Source: Candidatus Nanohaloarchaea archaeon (GTDB taxonomy: Archaea > Nanohalarchaeota > Nanosalinia > Nanosalinales > Nanosalinaceae). Taken from it: 64,000 nucleotides of DNA. Below the pieces are notes generated by a model that did no database searches, was not told where the DNA came from, and saw nothing but the letters and a program-made list of their open reading frames with translations. Location of the stretch: contig CP046106.1 in NCBI GenBank assembly GCA_013343275.1, forward strand, positions 64,001 through 128,000. The letters run 5' to 3'. Position numbers and translations under genes: made by a program. This document shows, piece after piece, positions 20,128 through 56,935 of this stretch (position 1 is the first letter of the stretch; each line of letters opens with the position of its first letter).

Positions 20128-21381
20128 ATGAGTTCTAAGGACAAGTTGAAGGAGATGAGGGAGAAATCCCAGGAGAGAAGGATTGAGGCTGTCGAAGAGT
20201 TCTCCGACAAGCTGCAGGAAAAGCTAGGAGATAAGGTCAAGGTTGTAGCTGTCTGGGGATCTGTTCCGAAAGGAGAGCATGGCTATGACTCCGATATAGA
20301 TACTCTTGTCATTTTAGACGATACTAAGTTGAAGAAAGACGTTCCTGACGATGCAAAGAAGAAGATCAGGAAGAAAGTTACTAATCTAGCGAAGGAAACA
20401 GATGAAAGGATTACAATTCAGTACTTCCCATTCCTTACAGACTTCTGGGACTCTCTCAGAAAAGGAGAGCCTCTAGCAATCGAAGCAGTAAGAAATGGCG
20501 AACCTGTATACGACACAGGCCTGTTCATGCCTGCAAAAAGACTTCTGGAGAGAGGAAAGATCTCCGGAACTCAGGAATCTGTCAAGAAAAGGTTGAAGAT
20601 GGGTGCAGCAGGATACAAGAAGGCCGAGAAAAACTTCAAGTCCTCCATCCCTCACAAGCTGGAGCAATCGATGGCCAATGCTGGTCAGGCCCCTATCATG
20701 CTTGCCGGCAAGGCCCCTCCAGGAAAGGAGAATGTACCGGATACTCTAGAGGAGATGTTTGTGGAGCAGGGTATGCTTGAGGAAGAGTATGTTGAAAAGG
20801 CCCGTGAGATCTACGAGTTCGCAGATACTGGTGAGAAGGATCCTGAAGAGGTTACTGGTGAGGCAGTAGAAGAACATCTGGATAAGACTGATGACTTTGT
20901 CCGCAGAATGCATAAACTTGTGTCGCAGCTGGGAGCAAGGAAGAAGGTCAAGGGCATCGTCGATGACTACAAGAAGTTCCTCAAGGCCAACGTGGCAGCC
21001 CTTAAATCGCAAGGTGTCTCTCCACCGGAAGATAAGAGCGACTTGCCTGGTGTAGTAGAAGAGAACCTTGATGTCGGCGATGAGCATATTGAGATGTTCG
21101 ACCGCTGGGAGGACGTCATCGAAAAGGTCAAGGCCAAGGAACTAGATGATGTGCCAGAGAAGGAGATCTACGAGCTGAAAAGCGAGACCCGTGACTTTGT
21201 CTCAGAAGTCGGCAAGGATATCCAGAAGATGAAGGACGAGAAGAAAGACATGGGGCCGAACGTTGATACCTCCGAGATTGCGGAAGCGGCTGACACAAAA
21301 GACATGATGCCTAACCTAGAGAAAGAGGCTGAAAGAAAGGTCGAACAGGAAGAGGAAGAAGAGGAAGAGGCCGAGAAGTAG
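20128..21381 (+). CDS. minimal nucleotidyltransferase (Pol-beta superfamily) fused to HEPN-like helical domains
   Basis: VWGSVPKGEHGYDSDIDTLVILDD (GS...DxD); helical C-terminal region. Confidence 0.8.
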   Translation: MSSKDKLKEMREKSQERRIEAVEEFSDKLQEKLGDKVKVVAVWGSVPKGEHGYDSDIDTLVILDDTKLKKDVPDDAKKKIRKKVTNLAKETDERITIQYFPFLTDFWDSLRKGEPLAIEAVRNGEPVYDTGLFMPAKRLLERGKISGTQESVKKRLKMGAAGYKKAEKNFKSSIPHKLEQSMANAGQAPIMLAGKAPPGKENVPDTLEEMFVEQGMLEEEYVEKAREIYEFADTGEKDPEEVTGEAVEEHLDKTDDFVRRMHKLVSQLGARKKVKGIVDDYKKFLKANVAALKSQGVSPPEDKSDLPGVVEENLDVGDEHIEMFDRWEDVIEKVKAKELDDVPEKEIYELKSETRDFVSEVGKDIQKMKDEKKDMGPNVDTSEIAEAADTKDMMPNLEKEAERKVEQEEEEEEEAEK

Positions 21382-21384
21382 TTT

Positions 21385-22014
21385 TTAGGCCTCTTCTGAC
21401 ATTTCCTTAACTTTCTTCATACGGAATGTTTCTTCTCTTTCGCTTTCTTCCAGTGTCTGTGATACGTAGTCGAGATCTTCCTTCATTTCTGGAATTGTCT
21501 TGTGTTCCAGTGCGTTGACACGTCTCTTCGTCTTCTCGATCTCATCCAGAAGTTTGAGTACTTTGGTCTGTGTCTCCGCAGCCTGTATGATCTTCTCAAT
21601 CAGTTCCTCGTATCTATCTGCTACAGAGTCGATCCTGGAGGTTGAGGTGGTCAGGCCGTACTCTCTTTCGGTAACTGTTCTCTGAACGCTTTCTGATTCT
21701 ATTTCAGGGACTACTACACCCATGATGTTCTGTGTTTCGGCCTTGATCTGCGGTTCGTTCTCAACATGCAGAGTGTTGGCCAGTAGAGTATCTTCGCCGT
21801 CGTACACCTTGGCCAGCAGAAGCTTCAATCGGGCCTCGGAGTAGAGATCGGCTAGTTCCTGGTTTACGTCCCTTGCATCACCGATTATCTCCATGAACTC
21901 GTGGATCAGGCCGTCTCTTTTCTTCTCCAGGATTTCGTGGCCGTTCTCTGCAAGCTCTATCTTCTCTTTCAGCTTGAGTTCTTCTGAACGTGTTGGTTTT
22001 ACGTCTTGGCTCAT
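21385..22014 (-). CDS. atpD: A-type ATPase subunit D
   Basis: PTR.EL..LK, LEKKRDGL, NIMGV, EIEKTKRRVNALE. Confidence 0.96.
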   Translation of the reverse strand: MSQDVKPTRSEELKLKEKIELAENGHEILEKKRDGLIHEFMEIIGDARDVNQELADLYSEARLKLLLAKVYDGEDTLLANTLHVENEPQIKAETQNIMGVVVPEIESESVQRTVTEREYGLTTSTSRIDSVADRYEELIEKIIQAAETQTKVLKLLDEIEKTKRRVNALEHKTIPEMKEDLDYVSQTLEESEREETFRMKKVKEMSEEA

Positions 22015-22044
22015 ATAATCACCTTTTTAGGAGCGAAGAGGTTT

Positions 22045-23439
22045 TTACTCCTCTTCCTCTTCGCTGGTTTCTGGCAGGTATTTCTCCCGAGTTTCTGGGT
22101 CCACTCTTGTGAGTTCTCCTTCTGGAACGATGGAGAGCAGATCCCACGCGATGGAGAGTGATTCCTCGATATCTCTGTTGGTTCGGGTTCCTTGATCAAT
22201 AATCTCCTGCTCGAACTGCCTCGTGAACTCGAGAACTTTCTCATCTCTGTCGCTCAGTGCGTCCTCTCCGACAATCGAAACCAGGTCTCTCAGGTTCTCA
22301 CCTTCTGCGTACAGAGCGTAGAGCTGGTCCTTGAGGTCGCCGTGGTCTTCACGGGTGTAACCCTCTCCGATACCGTTGTCCATAAGACGGGAAAGCGATG
22401 GAAGCACATCTACAGGAGGTTTCAGACCTTTGTTATCGAGATCTCTGTCCACAACGATCTGTCCTTCTGTAATGTATCCTGTAAGGTCAGGGATCGGGTG
22501 TGTCTTGTCGTCGTTAGGCATTGTCAGGATCGGGATCTGTGTGACTGATCCTTCACGGCCTTCGATAATTCCTGCTCTCTCGTAGATCTCTGCCAGGTCT
22601 GTGTACATGTATCCTGGGTAACCACGACGGCCTGGAACTTCCTCTCTTGCGGCTGATACTTCACGCAGTGCGTTGGCGTAGTTTGTCATGTCGGTCATGA
22701 TGACAAGCACTTCCATACCTTTCTCGAAAGCCAGGTACTCTGCAGTTGTCAGGGCCAGCCGTGGAGTGATCAGTCTCTCCGGTGCTGGATCGTCGGCCTT
22801 GTTCAGGAATACGACCGAGCGCTCAAGTGCTCCGGTCTCTCTGAACTCTTCGATGAACTCCTTGGACTCTTCATCTGTAATACCCATACCTGCGAACACT
22901 ACAGCGAATTCGTCGTCCTCTCCGGAAACATCGGCCTGTCGAGCGATCTGCATTGAAAGCTCGTTGTGCGGAAGGCCTGATCCCGAGAAGATAGGAAGCT
23001 TCTGTCCTCTTACCAGTGTGTTCATCAGGTCGATTGTCGTGATTCCTGTCTGGATGAAGTCCTCAGGTAGCTCACGAGAGTAAGGGTTGATGGCCTCCCC
23101 CTGGATATCTCTTTCCTCTTCAGGGATGATCTCTGGTCCGTCGTCGATTGGGTCTCCGGTTCCGTCAAGGATCCTGCCCAGTAGGTCGTCTGTTACGGGC
23201 ATTTTGACGTTCTGGTCCAGGAACTTGACGTGTGCATCTTTTCCGATTCCCTGTGTTTCCTCGTAGACCTGTACAACTACTACGTCTTTAGATGTCTCGA
23301 GGACTTCTCCTCTCTTTGTTTCGCCATCCGGCGTCTCGATTTCTACAATGTCTCCGTAGGCGATGTCTCGGGTTTTCTCTACGTATACGAGAGGTCCTTT
23401 AACTTCGTTGATCGTCTTGTATTCTTCTTGTTGGCTCAT
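22045..23439 (-). CDS. atpB: A-type ATPase subunit B
   Basis: [41 protein letters not shown]. Confidence 0.97.
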
Positions 23440-23480
23440 TCTACATCACCTTGTGATGTTGATCTTAGAAAATCTTGCAT
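23436..23480 (-). CDS. putative 14-aa mini-cistron upstream of atpB ([14 protein letters not shown])
   Basis: Own SD GAGGTG 7 nt upstream; stop overlaps atpB start (ATGA); contains the atpB SD inside a hairpin. Confidence 0.5.
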
Positions 23481-23492
23481 TTTCGGCCACCT

Positions 23493-25229
23493 CTACTCCT
23501 CGACTACCTCGTCGAACTCCTGTTCCATCTGATCACGGATTTCCTGAACTGTTTCCAGGTAGTCCTCTGAGGTTGCTACCTCGCTGATACGGTTTTTGGA
23601 GTCGAGGGTGATGATGTCTTCTACAAGTGCTCCTTCTTCGAGGGCCTCGTAGGCGTTGTTACCCCAGTCGAGGATCAGGTCGAGTATTTCATGGGTTTTC
23701 TCTGGTTCTGAGTACTGGTCTACAGGGTGGAAAGCGTTCTGCTGTAGGTAGAACTGTTTGACCATGTCTGCAATCTCTAGAGTCAGTCTTTCACGGTCTG
23801 GAAGTGCGTCCTTACCTACAAGCTGAACTGTTTCCTGGAGCTCTCCGTCCTTCTGAAGAAGGTCTTTGGCTTCCTGTATGTTTTCCTCCCATTCTTCGTC
23901 GACTTCTTCGCTGAAGTAGTCAACTAGTTTGTCGGAGTATCCTGAGTAGGAGTCATCCCAGTTGATCGATGGGAAGTGCCTCTTCTCGGCGAGGTCTGCA
24001 TCCAGTGCCCAGAAGTTCTTCGCTACACGTAGAGTGTTCTGGGTTACTGGCTCCGAGAAGTCTCCTCCTGGAGGTGAGACTGCTCCGATGATGGAGACAG
24101 ATCCTGGATCATCAGGGCCTAGAGGTTTGACTCTTCCTGCTCTCTCGTAGAACTCTGCGAGTCGAGAGGCCAGGTATGCTGGGTATCCTCTTTCTCCAGG
24201 CATCTCTTCGAGTCTTGCTGATACTTCACGCATAGCTTCTGCCCATCTTGATGTTGAGTCTGCCATCAGGGCTACGTCGAGACCCATGTCTCTGAAGTAT
24301 TCTGCGATTGTTACTCCGGTATAAATGGAGGCCTCTCTTGCTGCTACTGGCATGTTTGATGTGTTTGCAATCAGTACTGTACGGTTGATGATTTTGTCTC
24401 CTGTCTGTGGATCCTCAAGTTCTGGGAACTCTTCGAGGACTTCTGTCATCTCGTTTCCTCTTTCTCCGCATCCGATGTATACGATGATGTCTGCATCGGA
24501 GAACTTGGCCAAGGACTGCTGTGTAACAGTTTTTCCTGAACCGAATGGCCCTGGAATGGCTGCTGTTCCTCCTTTTGCGATTGGGAAGAATCCGTCAAGT
24601 ACTCTCTGGCCTGTGATCAGAGGAACTTCTGGCTTCATCTTTTCTTCTTCCTCTCTCGGCTGTCTGATAGGCCATTCCTGTCTCATCTGGATTTCTTCGC
24701 CGTCTTCCAGAGTGACTACTGTTTCTTTGACTGTGTGTTCTCCGGCCCGGATTTCTTCGATTGTTCCTCCTTCGCTTCCCGGTGGAACCATTACCTTGTG
24801 TGTTCCGAAGTCTACATCGACTTTACCGATTACATCGCCGGAACTGACTTCGTCGCCTTCCTCTCTTGTAGGCCTGAAGTCATATTCTTCTTCCATGTCG
24901 ATTCCTGGTGCGTCTTCACCTCTTTCGATGAAGTCGCCGGTCATCTCCTGCAGTACCGGTAGAGGTCTCTGAAGTCCGTCGTAGATGGAGCCTAGAAGTC
25001 CTGGCCCTAGCTCTACGGATAGTGGTTCTTCAGTGTTCTCTACAGGTTCTCCCGGTTTTACTCCGGTTGTCTGTTCGTAGACCTGTATGTATGATTTTTC
25101 TCCTTCGATTTGGATAACTTCTCCCATGAGTCCTTCTTCGCCGACTTTAACTACGTCGTACATCTGAGGATCCATGCCGGTAGCGATAACCACCGGACCT
25201 GCTACTTTGTAAATTTCTCCATCAGCCAT
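23493..25229 (-). CDS. atpA: A-type ATPase catalytic subunit A (no intein)
   Basis: [42 protein letters not shown]. Confidence 0.97.
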
Positions 25230-25285
25230 TACTGTTCACCTCGAACAGTTGTGCTTTGTAGAAAACTTTGAGTTTTCGATTTCAT
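25229..25285 (-). CDS. putative 18-aa mini-cistron upstream of atpA ([18 protein letters not shown])
   Basis: Own SD AGGTGA 9 nt upstream; stop overlaps atpA start (TAATG); the atpA SD lies in a hairpin loop inside it. Confidence 0.55.
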
Positions 25286-25314
25286 TTTTGTGTTTCACCT
25301 TATAGTATGAGTTT

Positions 25315-25635
25315 TTATTCTGGAGTGATGTCTGCTCCAATTGCTTTCTTGATTTTCTCCTGCAACCGTTCGCTTTCTGCTTCCTCGGAAAGCGGTACTA
25401 CGACAGGATCTACCGAGCTGCTTACGTTCTTCTGGATTCTCTCCGGTAGCTCCTTTAGATCCTTCTCTTTCACTACCAGGATACCGATGTCTTCTCTGCT
25501 GGTTAGTTCCTGAATCTTTTCCCTGTAGTTTTCCTTTTCGAATACCTTCTCTACTCCTGCAAGCTGGAATCCAAGCGTGAAGTCCTGATCTCCGATCACT
25601 GCAAGATTCTTTTTCTCCATATCTTCGTCTGTCAT
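25315..25635 (-). CDS. atpF: A-type ATPase subunit F
   Basis: AVIGD.DF.LGF.LAG, L.EKIKKAIG. Confidence 0.94.
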   Translation of the reverse strand: MTDEDMEKKNLAVIGDQDFTLGFQLAGVEKVFEKENYREKIQELTSREDIGILVVKEKDLKELPERIQKNVSSSVDPVVVPLSEEAESERLQEKIKKAIGADITPE

Positions 25636-25641
25636 TCAATT

Positions 25642-26661
25642 TCACCTTTCTGGAACAATCAAGTTTCTTCTGATGGTTTCGATATTGTGGATACCTGTCT
25701 CCTTCGCTCTGATCAGCATCCGGAGATTTTCAACCTCTGTAATTTTCGCAACAACGTATCCAATAATCGAGGTAAGGCCCAGTGGCTCTGTGTGGAGCAT
25801 TTTCAAGGCCTTCCGCAGTCTCTTTACTTCCAGTTCTCTTTCTATCTCCTCGAGGTCTTCGTCAGTTGAGCTTATTCTCTCTTCCTCGGCAAGTATCTCT
25901 ACTGCGTGATTGAGGTCTTCTGCCTCGATTACTTTGTCCACTATTTCCGATCCGCCGTTCTCTATCATCCTTTCCCGGATTTCCTCTCTTCCCTGTCCGT
26001 GTTTTTTCAGCCTTAATGCGACCGTAAGGTTCTGGTGTTCCATCTCTCTTTTCAGGAAGTTCTGGAACTCCTCGCTTCTTACCTCTCCCGCCAGAAGCTC
26101 TAGTTCGTCGAAATGGGCCTGGTCGAGAGCTGTCTCAATCTCTGATACAGATTCCTTCCCTTCAAGGTAGTTGCTGTAATCTATCTTGGCGTCAAAGTCT
26201 AGTTCATCCACGATTTCGTCGAGGTCTTTCTCCGATAGTTCCTTGAGTTCTTTGTAGGTGAAGCTGGAGACAGGGGTTAGAATCGACTCTATGTCGAGGT
26301 CTCCTTGGTCACTAAGCTTCCACCTGAGCAGCCTCTTGATGCTTAAAATATCGTACCTTCTGAGGTAGGCCTCCAGGATTTCGCTCAGATCCTCTGGCGC
26401 CATCTCCACAAGTTCGGACAGGGAACGGGCCAGGTTGCGTGTGAGTCCTAGTTCAACCAGTCGTACACCATCGTAGTTCGACCCTAGTGCATCGATATCT
26501 TCCTTGTACTCTCCTTCTTCCAGATTTCTCGAAATCTCGTTTACACCCATCTTCATGAAGTTCTCGTAGTCGCTGCTCTCCAGAAGCTTTGCCTTCTTGG
26601 CGCTGACACGGGCGTACATGTAAGGGTAGTCTCTCTCGGTTCCTAGGGCCATGTTCTCCAC
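25642..26661 (-). CDS. atpC: A-type ATPase subunit C
   Basis: Y.YARV.A...LL, E..NLR.LIRAK; operon position. Confidence 0.92.
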   Translation of the reverse strand: MENMALGTERDYPYMYARVSAKKAKLLESSDYENFMKMGVNEISRNLEEGEYKEDIDALGSNYDGVRLVELGLTRNLARSLSELVEMAPEDLSEILEAYLRRYDILSIKRLLRWKLSDQGDLDIESILTPVSSFTYKELKELSEKDLDEIVDELDFDAKIDYSNYLEGKESVSEIETALDQAHFDELELLAGEVRSEEFQNFLKREMEHQNLTVALRLKKHGQGREEIRERMIENGGSEIVDKVIEAEDLNHAVEILAEEERISSTDEDLEEIERELEVKRLRKALKMLHTEPLGLTSIIGYVVAKITEVENLRMLIRAKETGIHNIETIRRNLIVPER

Positions 26662-27204
26662 TCAGTTAAACAGTTTCTCCGCTACCTGATTTCTGTAGTT
26701 TTCACGGTAGTTCTCAACGATTTTATCTAGTTTAAAGTTCAGACGCTTTAATCCGTCTTCAGAAACCACTACAAGACCTTCGTCTTCAATCTCCTCGAAG
26801 TCGTAACCTTCGCTCTCTACTGCGTCTTCAAGGCCTTCGCTGCCCTGAATCTTCCCTACGTCGAAATCTGCCTTTTCAACACAGCTCGTGACGAATTCTT
26901 CCTGGTTGTCATCTACTTTCTCGGAGAGTTCGTCTCTGAACTCGTCGAATACATTGTTCAGTGCGTTCTGCTTGGCTTCGAGCTTTTTCTCCTTGGCCTT
27001 CATTCTGGCGTTTGCAAGGCCTTTCTTCTTGATGGATTCCTTTTCTTCCTCTATCTCTTTCTCTACTCTTTCCTCGATTTTTTCAGCTTCCTGCTGCGCT
27101 TCTTCTCTGATCTCTTCTGCTTCTTCCTCTGCTTCTTCCACTATACTGTTTGCTTTTTCTTCTGCGTCGTTCAAGACTTCTGATTTAACGTCTTCAAGTG
27201 CCAT
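26662..27204 (-). CDS. atpE: A-type ATPase subunit E
   Basis: N-terminal coiled coil, GLVVVSEDG, VA..LF end. Confidence 0.9.
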   Translation of the reverse strand: MALEDVKSEVLNDAEEKANSIVEEAEEEAEEIREEAQQEAEKIEERVEKEIEEEKESIKKKGLANARMKAKEKKLEAKQNALNNVFDEFRDELSEKVDDNQEEFVTSCVEKADFDVGKIQGSEGLEDAVESEGYDFEEIEDEGLVVVSEDGLKRLNFKLDKIVENYRENYRNQVAEKLFN

Positions 27205-27258
27205 AGTACTTTTTCCTCCTTTTCTCTACGTATGTCTTCGAATAAATTGAAAGTGGTG

Positions 27259-27278
27259 AAGGGCCTTTGAAGGGCCCT
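27259..27278 (-). other. GC-rich hairpin downstream of atpK (possible mRNA stabiliser or partial terminator)
   Basis: Minus strand AGGGCC-CTTCAAA-GGCCCT. Confidence 0.4.
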
Positions 27279-27292
27279 CCGGGTGGTTTTTT

Positions 27293-27526
27293 CTATATGA
27301 ATCCTGTTGCTACCAGTGAGACTACAAGTCCGAAGATAACCATTGTCTCCGGGATAACTGTAAGGATCAGGACGTTACCGAATAGGCTGTCGTCCTCTGC
27401 AAGAGCTCCTACTCCTGCTGATCCAATCTTTGCCTGTGCCCAGGCTGTTGCGAGTGCTGAGAGACCTATTGCTAGGCCTGCACCAATTGCCTGTAGTCCA
27501 CCGATTGCTGCTGTCTCTGTTGCCAT
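27293..27526 (-). CDS. atpK: A-type ATPase proteolipid subunit K (c)
   Basis: Single hairpin; IGAGLAIGL..AQ..IG, IPETMVIFGLVV with the ion-binding Glu. Confidence 0.95.
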   Translation of the reverse strand: MATETAAIGGLQAIGAGLAIGLSALATAWAQAKIGSAGVGALAEDDSLFGNVLILTVIPETMVIFGLVVSLVATGFI

Positions 27527-27541
27527 TGTGTGGTTTTCACC

Positions 27542-27619
27542 TCAAAATATAATTTTGAAAATCCGAGTGGATTTTCTGCTAACAGATTCCGGAAAAGAAT
27601 CTGTGTTTTTCGGCTTCAT
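27542..27619 (-). CDS. putative 25-aa mini-cistron between atpI and atpK (MKPKNTDSFPESVSRKSTRIFKIIF)
   Basis: Start overlaps atpI stop (ATGA); stop overlaps the GAGGTGA SD of atpK; spans three hairpins. Confidence 0.45.
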   Translation of the reverse strand: MKPKNTDSFPESVSRKSTRIFKIIF

Positions 27620-29439
27620 TTTGAAGCCTCTGCTCCGAATGGAGCGTATTTTTTACCGCCTCCTTCGTAGAACTTTCCGAACATCTCCACGTAGTGGAGT
27701 CGGATGCCCTGAAGGAAGCCTTCGATGATTTTGATGAATGAGTTGAATGTGTGTCCGAATACCAGTACTACTAGGCCTAGAGTGATTCCGAGCACTGTTC
27801 CTGACTGGAAAAGCGGTTCAGCCAGTGAGTTGACTACTACGGCTAGTGATACTGCTGCTACTGATACTCCGAATAGTCGGAGGTAGGACAGGATATTGGA
27901 CATCAGTGATGGGATCTCTACTACTCCTTCGATACCCTCTCCCAGGTAGAGTGTGATGACTGAGAGCAGGATTACTGGCAGGCCTGCTTCCATACCGACA
28001 AAGTACCATAGTGCTGCACCTGCTTCGAGTGCAATCCATGATCCTTTCTCAAGCAAGGCCTCTTTGATGCCGTGCCGGTTGAACTCGTTGTACGCCCCGA
28101 TCAGGTAGCCTAGGTTGACATGTACCAGTCCGATAAGTGCTGAGATCGTGAATACCTGGCCTAGGTGCTCTGCTCTGTGGAACAGTACCGGGATCTGGCT
28201 GAACACGTGCAGTCCGAACTGTTCTGCCAGTATGGAGTGCGATCCGAAGATCATGTATCCGAATGCGTCTCCGAACGCCAGGCCGAAGGCCATAGTGGCG
28301 ATGGAGGCGTACATGAGCGACTTGAATATTTCCTCGGCTCCGTCAATCATACGGTATCCTGCGTAGAAGATTGCGAACGTGGAGAGTCCGTATCCGAAGT
28401 CTCCGATCATGAATCCGAAGAATAGAGGGAATGTAAGCATGAGGATGACTGATGGATCAAGTTCGTCGTGTCGTGGTACTGCCATCAGATCTGTAAGAGA
28501 TTCGAAAGGCTGTACGAACCGGTTGTTGTCGTGCTGTACAGGAGGGTTGTCTCCTTCCTCTTTCTGGATATGTACCTTTCCTTCGGTTACTTCTGCTACT
28601 CTCTCCTCGAAGTCGTCGAATGACTCGGAAGGTATCCATCCTTCTATGATGAATGTGTTTTCTGTAGTACCAAACTTCAGAGGTACTTCTGCCTTCTCGA
28701 TTCTTTCTGTAAGGTATTCGTCGGCTGTTTCAAGCTTACCTCTCCACTCGTGAGCTATATCTTCCAGCTCCGACTCTACCTGCTCTATCTCCTCTCTGTA
28801 CTCTTCTTTCTGTGACTGTGCGTTGCTTACTATGCTTTCAGGAGTTCCTGAGTAATCGCCTTCAGGTAGTTCAAAACTTCTCTCCTGAACATCCATCAAC
28901 ACATCTTCTACGCCGGAGTCTTTCTCGTAGACAACAACTGTAGCTCCGTTTCCTTCAAGAACCTCGTAGTTACCGGAGGCCTGCGATCTGAACTCTTCCT
29001 CATCAAGGACTCCGATGAAGACATCCAGGTTCTCTGACCCTTCAAGGTCCTCGTAGGTTAGGCCTGTTCCTGATACTTTTCTGAAGAACTTTCTATCATC
29101 ATTTAAACTTGAGATCTTTCTGCTGAATTCTTCTTTCTTTGCTGTAAGCCTGTCGATATCGGACGAAATCTGCTCTACGTTGTCCTGTATCTCTTCAAGA
29201 TCTAAATCTTCTTCTTCGGTTTCTACTTCCGGAAGCTTTGATTCGAGAGATCTTATATCGACTAGAAGCTGTGAGAGGTCCTCTGCCTCTTCAAAGGGTT
29301 CTCCTGTATCAAGCTCTCCGTCGTAAGATTCTATATCCAGAATTTCGAGAGAGTGGAGTTCATCGATAACATCTTTTAGATATTTCTTCGGGCCGGTTAC
29401 TGAGGTTTTGGTCATCTCTGCTGGTTTTATTTTAATCAC
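27616..29439 (-). CDS. atpI: A-type ATPase subunit I (a)
   Basis: DPS, FPLFFGFMIGDFGYG, ILSYLRL, RLHYVE.FGKFY. Confidence 0.95.
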   Translation of the reverse strand: MIKIKPAEMTKTSVTGPKKYLKDVIDELHSLEILDIESYDGELDTGEPFEEAEDLSQLLVDIRSLESKLPEVETEEEDLDLEEIQDNVEQISSDIDRLTAKKEEFSRKISSLNDDRKFFRKVSGTGLTYEDLEGSENLDVFIGVLDEEEFRSQASGNYEVLEGNGATVVVYEKDSGVEDVLMDVQERSFELPEGDYSGTPESIVSNAQSQKEEYREEIEQVESELEDIAHEWRGKLETADEYLTERIEKAEVPLKFGTTENTFIIEGWIPSESFDDFEERVAEVTEGKVHIQKEEGDNPPVQHDNNRFVQPFESLTDLMAVPRHDELDPSVILMLTFPLFFGFMIGDFGYGLSTFAIFYAGYRMIDGAEEIFKSLMYASIATMAFGLAFGDAFGYMIFGSHSILAEQFGLHVFSQIPVLFHRAEHLGQVFTISALIGLVHVNLGYLIGAYNEFNRHGIKEALLEKGSWIALEAGAALWYFVGMEAGLPVILLSVITLYLGEGIEGVVEIPSLMSNILSYLRLFGVSVAAVSLAVVVNSLAEPLFQSGTVLGITLGLVVLVFGHTFNSFIKIIEGFLQGIRLHYVEMFGKFYEGGGKKYAPFGAEASK

Positions 29440-29787
29440 CTAGAGGAAGTCTTCTCTAAATTGCTGTTCCAGAACTTCTTTTGCTTCCTCGCTGTTTTCC
29501 TTGGCATGCTGCTTGGTATCTGCGGCTTCGTCTTCTCCTTCTTCAATTATCTCTTCTTTCTGCTCTTCTATCTCTTTACGGAAGTCTCTGAGTTCCTTCT
29601 CCTTTCTCTCCTGCATGTTTTCCTTCTTGCTGTCTACTATTTCATCTGCCTCTTCCCTGGCATCGGAAAGAATCTCTTCCCTGCTTTCCTCTGCGTCTTC
29701 GATAATGGATTTGGCGTCTTTCTCTGCCTTTTTGACTTCTTGTACTACATTACTCAAAACAAAACCACCGCAAGAAAACATGAGCAT
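29440..29787 (-). CDS. atpH: A-type ATPase subunit H (G); start uncertain
   Basis: Charged coiled coil, first gene of the operon. Confidence 0.8.
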   Translation of the reverse strand: MLMFSCGGFVLSNVVQEVKKAEKDAKSIIEDAEESREEILSDAREEADEIVDSKKENMQERKEKELRDFRKEIEEQKEEIIEEGEDEAADTKQHAKENSEEAKEVLEQQFREDFL

Positions 29788-29894
29788 TGAAAGGTTTATA
29801 AAAGGTGCGAGCAGCTTTTCTCCGCCTCCTCTTTAAAAGAGTTGCGCTGACCCTGGTTTCTGATTTAAAAATAGTTCTCGATACATCAAGATAC

Positions 29895-30983
29895 ATGGAA
29901 GAAAGAGGCCTGAAAATCTTCGTACCGGAAGAAGAGGAGCCTGGGAAAGACTCCAGCGTATTCTACAATAAAGATATGAAGAATAATAGAGACATATCAG
30001 AGGCCGCGCTCAAAGTCTTCCGTGAAAAAGTAGATGTGCCGGAGTTCAACATCGCAGACGCACTTGCAGCATCGGGCATCAGAGGATTCCGGTACGCAGA
30101 CCAGGGAAACATCTACCTGAACGATGCAAACCCCAAGGCCATCGAAAGCATACAGAAAGGCCTTGAAGAAAATAATATCGAGGCCGAGGTCTCGGAGCAG
30201 GACGCCAACGTTTTCCTGTCGGAGAACAGAAACTTTCTCCACTTCATCGACATCGATCCCTTCGGTCCTTTCACACCATATCTTGATTCTACAGCTAGAG
30301 CAGCTAACTACCAGAGCTTCGTAGGCCTTACAGCTACAGATAATGCAGTACCAGCAGGTAGCTACAAGAAAACATGTATGAGACGGTATGGATCGACGCC
30401 GATGAAAAACTCCTTAATGCATGAGACAGGCCTCAGAATTTACATCAAGGAAGTGTTCCAGAACTTCGCAAGATACGATAAATGCTTTGATCCGAAGATC
30501 TGCTGGCATGAAAGACATTACTCAAGAGTAATGGGTCGAGTCACTGAATCAAAAAGCCGGACTAACCGGGCCCTCGAAAATATAGGCTACATGAGTTTCT
30601 GTCCGGAGTGCAGGTGGCGGAAACTGGAGGAAGTCGATGAATGCGGTCACTGTGGAGCTGAAGTGAAGCTTGCCGGCCCTCTATGGACCGGAAAGATCTC
30701 TGATCAAAGGTTCACGGAAGAGGTGCTCCAAGAGATGCCGGAAGACTGGGATTCTAGAGAAATTGTAGAGTTGTTGGATTCGGAGGCCGAGATACTGACA
30801 CCTTTCTACGACCTCCATAAAATGGCCTCGTCCACAGGAGTTATGGCGCCGAAAAGAGAGGACGTTATACAGGAACTGCAGGATAAGGGCTATCCTGTTT
30901 CCAGAACTCACTTTGCACCAACCGGTATAAGGACGGATGCGCCGATAGAAGATATTATTGAGATAATGAAGGCCTTAGAATAG
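29895..30983 (+). CDS. trm1: tRNA (guanine-26-N2)-dimethyltransferase
   Basis: VFYN..M..NRD, DALAASGIRG.R, IDIDPFG, TATD, GPLW.G, SRTHF. Confidence 0.95.
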   Translation: MEERGLKIFVPEEEEPGKDSSVFYNKDMKNNRDISEAALKVFREKVDVPEFNIADALAASGIRGFRYADQGNIYLNDANPKAIESIQKGLEENNIEAEVSEQDANVFLSENRNFLHFIDIDPFGPFTPYLDSTARAANYQSFVGLTATDNAVPAGSYKKTCMRRYGSTPMKNSLMHETGLRIYIKEVFQNFARYDKCFDPKICWHERHYSRVMGRVTESKSRTNRALENIGYMSFCPECRWRKLEEVDECGHCGAEVKLAGPLWTGKISDQRFTEEVLQEMPEDWDSREIVELLDSEAEILTPFYDLHKMASSTGVMAPKREDVIQELQDKGYPVSRTHFAPTGIRTDAPIEDIIEIMKALE

Positions 30984-37778: not shown

Positions 37779-38060
37779 ATGGCAAGCCTCTGGGATTTAG
37801 GAAAGAGTTCTAAGGAGAAGCTTGCCGATGAATGGGAAGATGACGGAGTGCTCGAGGATAAAGTTAACGAGCACCGTCACAAGTTTGAGGATCAGTTCCA
37901 AGAAAACATGGATGACGAAGTACCGACACATCCATACAAGATTTACCGTGAAATAGTGGAATCCAACGAATTAACGGATGAAGAGCGCGTAGCTCTTGAA
38001 CAGATGAAGGACGAGTTCTCCGAAAGATGGCAGGAACTCAAGAATACTCACTCCAACTAG
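37779..38060 (+). CDS. hypothetical small acidic protein
   Basis: 93 aa; TATA-like box upstream, hairpin and T-tract downstream. Confidence 0.7.
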   Translation: MASLWDLGKSSKEKLADEWEDDGVLEDKVNEHRHKFEDQFQENMDDEVPTHPYKIYREIVESNELTDEERVALEQMKDEFSERWQELKNTHSN

Positions 38061-56763: not shown

Positions 56764-56935
56764 GTTTTCGGCCCTTTAACCTCTCTATTTATTTTTCTAT
56801 TACCTTTATCGTATTTCGCTGTCAAAAATTCTGCTGGGGAACTAGATAGGGAATGAAAATTAGGGAATAAGAACGGAGAAATTCCGGAAATAGAAGAATT
56901 TCCTGTGAATACAGAAACTCTCCGAGTTTCGAATT

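Follow-up and report, generated by a model that had tools for sequence, protein, structure and literature searches.

Mini-cistrons in a nanohaloarchaeal ATPase operon as local copies of a dispersed two-hairpin repeat, a proposed relay cassette

Why do short, neatly punctuated open reading frames (ORFs) stand before some genes of an archaeal ATPase operon and not before others? The question is raised by a window of 64,000 nucleotides (nt) from Candidatus Nanohaloarchaea archaeon (assembly GCA_013343275.1, contig CP046106.1, positions 64,001 to 128,000), which carries an A-type ATPase operon on its minus strand at window positions 21385-29787, with the gene order H-I-K-E-C-F-A-B-D. An earlier note on this DNA described three mini-ORFs, before atpK, atpA and atpB, and read them as a device that sets subunit stoichiometry. 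When the sequence was re-read, all three mini-ORFs were found where they had been placed, on the minus strand, together with their Shine-Dalgarno (SD) motifs and stop/start overlaps, and the operon's remaining junctions in the window (H>I, 0 nt; K>E, 88; E>C, 0; C>F, 6; B>D, 30) are free of such ORFs. Judged from sequence, the mini-cistrons before atpA and atpB, and in part the one before atpK, represent local copies of an approximately 50-nt repeat that is dispersed throughout the lineage and that we call the “relay cassette”.

A full copy of the cassette consists of an SD motif (SD1) and a start codon (ATG1), a first hairpin, a linker of about 8-10 nt, a second hairpin that carries another SD motif (SD2), and a stop codon that overlaps the start of the gene downstream. 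SD2 is of the GGTG type and lies at the loop or 3' arm of hairpin 2, and the overlaps at real genes take the forms TAATG, TGATG, ATGA, GTGA, TTGA or TGA-ATG. The family is defined by a covariance model, R2, built from 12 copies in the source genome (G000; 915,886 bp, 96% complete), and the best score of this model in five unrelated archaeal genomes, 34.6 bits, was taken as its noise ceiling. An earlier model, R1, was built from two sequences and proved too narrow; the matches from its unfiltered window search at 37977, 19747 and L039:9-70 were discarded as coding-sequence noise.

A genome-wide scan found 17 SD-type copies directly before genes in the source genome, the one before atpK being partial. 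The genes downstream encode the ribosomal proteins S7, S24e, S27e, L2, S3, L24, S14 and L30, Spt4, AtpB, AtpA, AtpK, the exosome subunit Rrp41, an FAD oxidoreductase, prephenate dehydrogenase, E1-beta and Topo VI-A. Most copies are internal to operons, and the gene upstream is commonly the partner of the gene downstream: among ten upstream genes scanned against Pfam, eight encode Rrp4, Topo VI-B, RpoE', E1-alpha, S12, L23, L14 and S5, and the remaining two a ferredoxin and an aminotransferase, while L44e was recognized upstream of S27e from its translation rather than by a Pfam match. Three further gene starts (G000:C1:144983, 274662 and 717123) have bridging ATG mini-ORFs and partial hairpins and resemble further or decayed cassettes, which makes 17 a minimum.

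The repeat is widespread in the phylum. At E<=1e-4, R2 matches 42 of the phylum set's 70 genomes, distributed by family as 35 of 49 (f1), 2 of 10 (f3), 4 of 8 (f4) and none in the single genomes of f2 and f5, and it matches none of the five unrelated archaeal genomes at this threshold. The number of copies per genome ranges from 0 to 28 (R2, E<=0.01). Generic hairpins with 6-bp stems are not enriched relative to Markov shuffles (161 and 156 on the two strands, against 118-163), and only stems of at least 7 bp in intergenic DNA stood out. Hairpins of this stem length in the GAAAA...TTTTC frame number 47 in intergenic and 22 in coding sequence on the plus strand of the source genome, about 15% of which is intergenic. 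A search of window positions 21000-30000 against Rfam 15 at E<=5 gave four matches, all far below the gathering score and to unrelated eukaryotic or sRNA families, and our literature searches turned up neither this repeat nor relay mini-cistrons in Nanohaloarchaea.

The mini-ORF helps to define the cassette and is non-random, beyond chance. For the frame statistics, 60 copies were examined, 43 from relatives and 17 from the source genome, and the 12 that lacked a downstream gene or a nearby start codon were dropped. A bridging ORF was defined as one with its start codon next to hairpin 1 and its stop between -14 and +4 of the gene start. The frame of that start codon is open and stops within this interval in 44 of the 48 remaining copies, whereas the other two frames end at the gene start in 2 and 8 copies and have premature stops in 39 and 28. 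The stop lies at -2 in 24 copies, at +1 in 11 and at -3 in 5; an SD motif precedes the mini start in 45; and the 44 bridging ORFs are 14-20 codons long. In the 42 cases with an identifiable upstream gene, its stop and the mini start overlap in 19 and are no more than 12 nt apart in 17. The copies are related by descent, and the counts therefore describe a family trait rather than independent trials. Within the source genome, 14 of 15 cassette junctions are bridged, compared with 28 of 198 other co-directional spacers of 40-130 nt, as judged from our own rough gene calls. Several of these 28 spacers look like decayed cassettes themselves.

It is hardly credible that the mini-ORFs encode functional micropeptides, as the earlier note had allowed, or that they are chance ORFs. 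The three atp peptides are indeed partly alike, as had been noticed, but this is not peptide conservation. They resemble each other because an arm of hairpin 1 that is common to the copies is translated, the shared “SF/DF” being the 3' arm. Within the 44 bridging ORFs, each of the three frames is used to read hairpin 1 (30, 9 and 5 copies), giving unrelated peptides such as MKIxDF, MxENQRFS and MRKSKIF, and no peptide is conserved for that reason. Chance, for its part, is excluded by the frame statistics. Leader-peptide attenuation does not fit either, the peptide not being conserved and the folds offering no terminator alternative.

Both hairpins are general features of the family. A copy-by-copy scan detected each of the two in 56 of 61 copies, with many differing stem sequences. 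In a MAFFT alignment of 13 copies from the source genome that was not fitted to the structure, four of the seven pairs of hairpin 1 have changed on both sides and 97.8% of the cells are paired; none of 500 column shuffles reaches this pairing, and slid registers all fall far lower. Hairpin 1 is the most conserved part of the repeat, in sequence as well as in structure. Hairpin 2 was aligned inconsistently by MAFFT and was therefore scored copy by copy, which measures pairing rather than formal covariation. It covers part of SD2. The outer arms of hairpins 1 and 2 are inverted repeats of each other, and in one subfamily the stem of hairpin 1 is extended so that it can pair with the bases of ATG1.

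The spacers of the ATPase operon can now be placed within this family (Table 1). The spacers before atpA and atpB appear to be diverged full copies and the one before atpK a partial copy. All three contain a hairpin 1 with a stem of 6-9 bp, a loop of 3-5 nt and the GAAA(A)...(T)TTTC frame, an upstream hairpin (arms beginning GAAAA and ending TTTTC) that the earlier note had overlooked. The stem of the atpA copy departs from the family consensus on both sides, and in the atpB copy the ATG of the mini-ORF is found at the boundary between arm and loop. Hairpin 2, with a GGTG-core SD2 at its loop or 3' arm 0-10 nt before the gene start, is present before atpA and atpB, and a copy-by-copy pairing scan did not find it in the atpK spacer. 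The mini-ORF stops lie at -2 (atpA) and +1 (atpB) of the gene start, so both are bridging ORFs as defined above. The distance from the upstream stop to the mini start is 12 nt at A>B and 29 nt at F>A, and at I>K the two overlap.

The claim that each downstream SD is held within a hairpin stands for atpA and atpB, where the hairpins are part of the minimum-energy folds, and falls for atpK, where the hairpin that had been named is absent from that fold. The support for the two SD hairpins is modest (z of about -2.0 each; 8 and 9 of 200 shuffles fold as well), while the atpK spacer is dominated by two other hairpins (z of -3.4; 1 of 200 shuffles). The atpK ORF lies outside the bridging definition, since its start is 40 nt upstream of hairpin 1 and its stop falls 18 nt short of the gene start. 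The same hairpin 1 is also present at I>K in four relatives (L104, L109, L111 and L105), only one of which (L111) has an ORF resembling the atpK mini-ORF, and G005 and G010 have cassette-like inserts past the old atpK start codon. The “mini-cistron” before atpK thus looks like part of a cassette, and its ORF may be fortuitous.

Table 1. Features of the cassettes and neighboring elements in the ATPase operon (window positions)
Feature	Position	Strand	Details
Mini-ORF before atpB	23436..23480	-	14 codons plus stop; ATGA overlap with atpB start at 23439
SD1 (GAGGTG) of atpB mini-ORF	23488..23493	-	overlaps atpA stop codon
Hairpin 1, atpB cassette	23468..23484	-	6-bp stem, 5-nt loop; in minimum-energy fold
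Hairpin 2, atpB cassette	23443..23459	-	7-bp stem, 3-nt loop; SD2 at loop/3' arm
Mini-ORF before atpA	25229..25285	-	18 codons plus stop; TAATG overlap with atpA start at 25229
SD1 (AGGTGA) of atpA mini-ORF	25295..25300	-	9 nt upstream of mini-ORF
Hairpin 1, atpA cassette	25261..25277	-	7-bp stem, 3-nt loop
Hairpin 2, atpA cassette	25231..25249	-	7-bp stem, 5-nt loop GAGGT, which is SD2
I>K ORF	27542..27619	-	25 codons; ATG overlaps atpI stop (ATGA), TGA overlaps atpK SD
Family-type hairpin 1, I>K spacer	27557..27576	-	8-bp stem, 4-nt loop
Additional hairpin inside I>K ORF	27582..27604	-	8-9 bp; missed by the earlier note
atpK SD (GAGGTGA)	27537..27543	-	
GC-rich 8-bp hairpin just past atpK stop	27258..27280	-	in K>E spacer; not part of a cassette

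It counts against the assignment that the R2 scores of the three copies are all below the noise ceiling, at 24.5 bits for atpB and 15 bits for atpK, with atpA absent from the matches at E<=10. Relatives have copies at these junctions that rise above the ceiling: A>B reaches 66.7 bits in G021 and 43 in G023, and F>A reaches 50.1 in G024. Because their own scores lie below noise, the membership of the atp copies rests on their architecture and on these better-scoring counterparts.

That the cassettes are a dedicated device for raising the output of K, A and B, and for setting the stoichiometry of A3B3 and the c-ring, is improbable. The restriction of mini-ORFs to these three genes within the window suggested such a function, and each cassette adds a second SD that could add ribosome entry. 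The same cassette, however, also precedes Spt4, Rrp41, E1-beta, Topo VI-A and ribosomal proteins, so that the pattern of preceding exactly the high-copy subunits does not survive as a sign of a stoichiometry device; 14 of the 17 copies in the source genome stand before genes other than these three, mostly genes for equimolar subunits. Pairing of ATG1 in one subfamily and the partial covering of SD2 should also restrict ribosome entry, as we see it. The original description is borne out in its layout, which is non-random, punctuated and similar to a bicistronic design, with SD2 at the loop or 3' arm of a hairpin.

Comparison of 21 atp operons (20 for A>B) bears on the same idea from both sides. 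Long spacers are concentrated at I>K (12 of 21), F>A (10 of 21) and A>B (8 of 20), compared with two or three at C>F, none at H>I and at most one at E>C, and this concentration before K, A and B is real. Three further A>B junctions hold a whole extra ORF. Against a fixed role in stoichiometry, full cassettes precede atpF in G006 and G016, and on a 21-tip tree of AtpA and AtpB the long-spacer state changes at least seven times at F>A, at least six at A>B and at least seven at I>K. What is widely conserved around atpK is the context of its ribosome-binding site (RBS), kept across relatives with or without an insert, and the hairpin just past its stop codon. The latter, though differing in sequence, was scored at this position in 19 of the 21 operons and is followed in the source genome by a TTTATT stretch. 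It looks like a terminator or stabilizer that parts H-I-K from E-C-F-A-B-D and is a more widespread candidate than the mini-ORF for raising the dosage of K.

Close relatives show how easily the cassette comes and goes. In G001, a member of the same genus whose AtpA is 94% identical, there is no cassette before atpA or atpB and the I>K spacer is short. At atpA and atpB, SD1 directly serves the gene in G001, and the source genome differs by a clean block of 56 or 41 nt. G001 is likewise empty at L23>L2, L5>S14 and S5>L30, while L22>S3 is occupied in both genomes. The S14 cassette, an unusual hairpin variant before a GTG gene start, is present in the source genome and in Nanohaloarchaea archaeon SG9 (G008), the closest named match among relatives by AtpA (82% identity), and is missing from G001, G012, G019 and G021. 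Frame, stop overlap and stem covariation are maintained in the family, and the occupancy of given atp junctions is labile. These patterns point to a cassette that spreads and is lost as a repeat.

Once in place, parts of the cassette appear to be under constraint. The ORF, SD2 and stop overlap are kept where the hairpins have decayed, as before S3 in both G021 and G008 and in the F>A spacers of L102, L103 and L105, which have no 6-bp hairpin at all. Each of the nine long F>A spacers that were read by eye has one or two mini-ORFs as a bridge. Between the source genome and G012, the A>B cassette is 85% identical, compared with 53-54% at third positions of conserved atpA and atpB codons, and the few changes within its stems keep the pairing. 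At the level of sequence comparison, it is shown to be conserved above synonymous sites.

How might such a module act? The most plausible mode of action is translational coupling, and the reading that we favor, with moderate confidence, is that of a hairpin module prone to gain and loss, bridged by a relay cistron that keeps termination-reinitiation coupling intact. The module is gained and lost at the junctions of co-translated genes, mostly those of partner subunits. A ribosome that has finished the upstream gene, or has loaded at SD1 (the case before atpA), would translate the mini-ORF and melt both hairpins on its way. It would then terminate on the real start codon and reinitiate there with the help of SD2.

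An argument for such a relay is one of distance. In Haloferax volcanii, reinitiation is reported to be down by 60% at a gap of 13 nt and gone at 22 nt, and in E. coli the upstream gene's final 15 nt are reported to be enough for coupling (PMC10666635). An insert of about 50 nt at a stop/start overlap would break coupling unless the ribosome were carried across. Since a gap of about 20 nt abolishes reinitiation in a haloarchaeon, an ORF of 14-20 codons would be what carries ribosomes over the insert. The geometry suits this, with the upstream stop on or near ATG1, an open frame across the hairpins, a stop on the real start and a well-spaced SD2. Models of coupling by RNA unfolding and by reinitiation are laid out in a review (PMC12548453). 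Pairing of ATG1 and the covering of SD2 by hairpin 2 would disfavor free entry and so enforce coupling, which by our reckoning is the opposite of what a booster would do.

Several points weigh against this reading. Translation of the mini-ORF, reinitiation and the role of the hairpins are all things that we infer. The atpA mini-ORF starts 29 nt past the atpF stop, too far for coupling to atpF, so it could not be a pure relay and would depend on de novo entry at SD1; here, the cassette would sit between an independent RBS and its gene. The relay explains neither what the hairpins are for nor why long spacers are concentrated at I>K, F>A and A>B. Two-hairpin copies that lack an SD are found next to tRNA genes and presumed rRNA genes, where translation plays no part. 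The stems pair almost exclusively as Watson-Crick (9 G-U and 5 A-C among 837 pairs, with no strand asymmetry), which fits a palindrome at the DNA level at least as well as a selected RNA. To these may be added the shared descent of the copies, through which the frame counts overstate independence.

Some of these points would be expected of a purely selfish or neutral palindromic insertion with no host function, similar to a MITE (miniature inverted-repeat transposable element) or a repetitive extragenic palindrome (REP), a reading that is unlikely, if far from negligible. The relay has an origin in common with it, and the two part only over whether the cassette is now needed by the host. Under the selfish reading, SD2, an open frame and a stop overlap would be what a surviving copy needs to avoid polar damage. 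The outer arms are inverted repeats and the stems near-perfect, with no excess of G-U pairs; near-identical copies stand before the unrelated genes for Rrp41 and E1-beta; presence and absence between congeners is clean at L2, S14, L30, atpA and atpB; and the copy number varies as widely as noted above. The decay of hairpins while the ORF persists fits as well. The copies beside tRNA genes are flanked by direct repeats of 11-15 nt of the tRNA end, a length reached by none of 200 random window pairs. On the other side, the SD-type copies have no consistent target duplication, most of their flanking repeats being 4-6 nt, a length that 27-99% of random pairs attain. Between genera, conservation of the A>B copy is well above that of synonymous sites, and the old, diverged copies before atpA and atpB keep perfect stems of quite different sequence.

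A search for the genes that could move such an element in the source genome gave no match to the Y1 transposase (PF01797), which was found in 6 of 14 reference genomes as a control, none to DDE_Tnp_1 (PF01609), and two sub-threshold matches to the TnpB-type zinc ribbon (PF07282). Without a Y1 gene, an origin of the IS200/605 or RAYT type was rejected. Nor does the cassette qualify as a MITE: inverted outer arms are present, but the flanking repeats vary from 4 to 15 nt and are mostly within random expectation. A bulge-helix-bulge mini-intron was also considered, and inspection of the flanks revealed no such motif.

It is doubtful that the cassette is an active, ultra-small mobile element that colonizes coupled stop/start junctions and is translationally “transparent” by virtue of its own RBS and relay cistron. 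Such an element would amount to a bicistronic-design part that occurs in nature and spreads by itself. Two-hairpin copies without an SD lie at G000:C1:194932-194975, 600506-600553 and 542405-542455, beside tRNA-Cys, tRNA-Pro and tRNA-Gly, and are flanked by direct repeats of 15, 11 and 13 nt, respectively, that duplicate the tRNA end. The source genome also has a single reverse transcriptase ORF (RVT_1, PF00078; 343 residues, 89.8 bits) at G000:C1:209897-210487. The tRNA-side repeats and the reverse transcriptase gene leave room for an unusual route of mobilization, possibly an RNA-mediated one.

The genes that carry the cassette invite yet another explanation, in which the hairpins bind an RNA-binding protein or RNase, or sense salt or temperature, and the mini-ORF is a regulated leader, so that ribosome, ATPase, exosome and RNA polymerase-associated genes are controlled together in their translation or stability. 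Core machinery does dominate the downstream genes (8 of the 17 encode ribosomal proteins), hairpin 1 is conserved in sequence and structure, and comparable pairs of hairpins flank some tRNA genes as well as a gap of about 4 kb that has no genes and is presumed to be the rRNA operon. Such a post-transcriptional regulon is nonetheless very unlikely, as the occupancy of junctions is highly labile among close relatives and most ribosomal protein junctions and most tRNAs have no element (only about 9 of 33 tRNAs have such a hairpin within 90 nt). There is also no match to an Rfam family, and no candidate binding protein was identified.

The relay reading places the cassette close to several known systems. 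Termination-reinitiation at overlapping stop/start codons, as described by Huber et al. (2019, PMC6728339; 2023, PMC10666635) and in PMC12548453, uses the same kinds of overlap, TAATG/TGATG and ATGA/GTGA, and the overlapping pairs in these reports encode subunits of one complex, as most cassette gene pairs do. The cassette differs in chaining two such junctions through a cistron of 14-20 codons over a pair of hairpins, and in being multi-copy. Hairpins that mask an RBS and are opened by ribosomes in an upstream frame are also described for rpmI-rplT and for genes VII/IX of phage f1 (PMC12548453). As presented there, these are single, locus-specific structures in real genes, whereas the cassette is a repeated module with a dedicated mini-cistron.

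Synthetic bicistronic designs likewise have a short leader cistron with its own SD, an embedded SD2 and a stop/start overlap. The cassette is natural and dispersed, has two conserved hairpins, is mostly internal to operons and has a leader that is probably coupled to the upstream gene. Bicistronic design is mentioned in the review of coupling (PMC12548453).

As a repeat, the cassette resembles REPs and bacterial interspersed mosaic elements (BIMEs), which are also short palindromic repeats between operon genes, vary between strains and are proposed to affect the mRNA (PMC3733652). The source genome, however, lacks Y1/RAYT, and the stems of the cassette are AU-rich (GAAAA...TTTTC) rather than GC-rich with a GTAG/CGTC tag. 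REPs are not known to carry an SD, a start codon and a bridging ORF. MITEs, too, are small, non-autonomous elements with inverted repeats (PMC3184786). At about 50 nt, the cassette is much shorter than these or the palindromic elements of Rickettsia, and no fixed target duplication or transposase was found for it in the source genome. The Rickettsia elements tolerate translation through in-frame insertion. The cassette, in contrast, is a cistron of its own between other cistrons, not inside a protein. It is best seen as an apparently undescribed combination of termination-reinitiation coupling with a dispersed palindromic repeat.

If the relay reading is true, an archaeal lineage carries tens of copies per genome of a module that chains two termination-reinitiation events, nature's equivalent of the synthetic bicistronic junction. 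Such a module would illustrate how coupled ribosome, ATPase and exosome operons tolerate, or exploit, insertions that would be expected to break coupling. For annotation, about 20 unannotated ORFs of 14-25 codons per genome should be considered real features, and the starts of adjacent genes are easily miscalled. Occupied and empty junctions in close relatives amount to a natural experiment on distance dependence, RBS hairpins and reinitiation in archaea of high intracellular salt. Expression data would be needed before the ATPase mini-cistrons are taken for a stoichiometry code.

Other observations were made on elements related to the cassette. At window positions 56880-56933 (minus strand; G000:120880-120933), a two-hairpin copy without an SD lies between a small ORF and a minus-strand gene; it scores 23.2 bits, below the noise ceiling. 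A cassette of 58.4 bits is found at the end of a gene at G000:C1:26722-26777, without a downstream gene and with no SD in the loop of hairpin 2. In the F>A spacers of G019 (L013) and G024 (L008), the mini-ORF starts with residues like those of the N-terminal extension of AtpA in G006, G013 and G017. It looks as if the cassette had split this extension off AtpA in these genomes.

Within the ATPase operons, nearly all F>A spacers conserve an ATACTAT-like motif immediately upstream of the SD (window 25301-25310), and a related string, “gatact”, abuts the ATG of atpE and atpB in several relatives. The motif may be a promoter or initiation signal; an internal-promoter reading of this AT-rich motif was considered and set aside. 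The A>B inserts of L115 (G006), L116 (G013) and L118 (G017) measure 555, 292 and 237 nt, and that of L025 (G030) several hundred nt; all are long enough for an extra small gene. Finally, the match to AtpA in G014 (G014:C1:174892-178191) falls in two pieces within one open frame of 1109 residues, which suggests an intein in the catalytic subunit.

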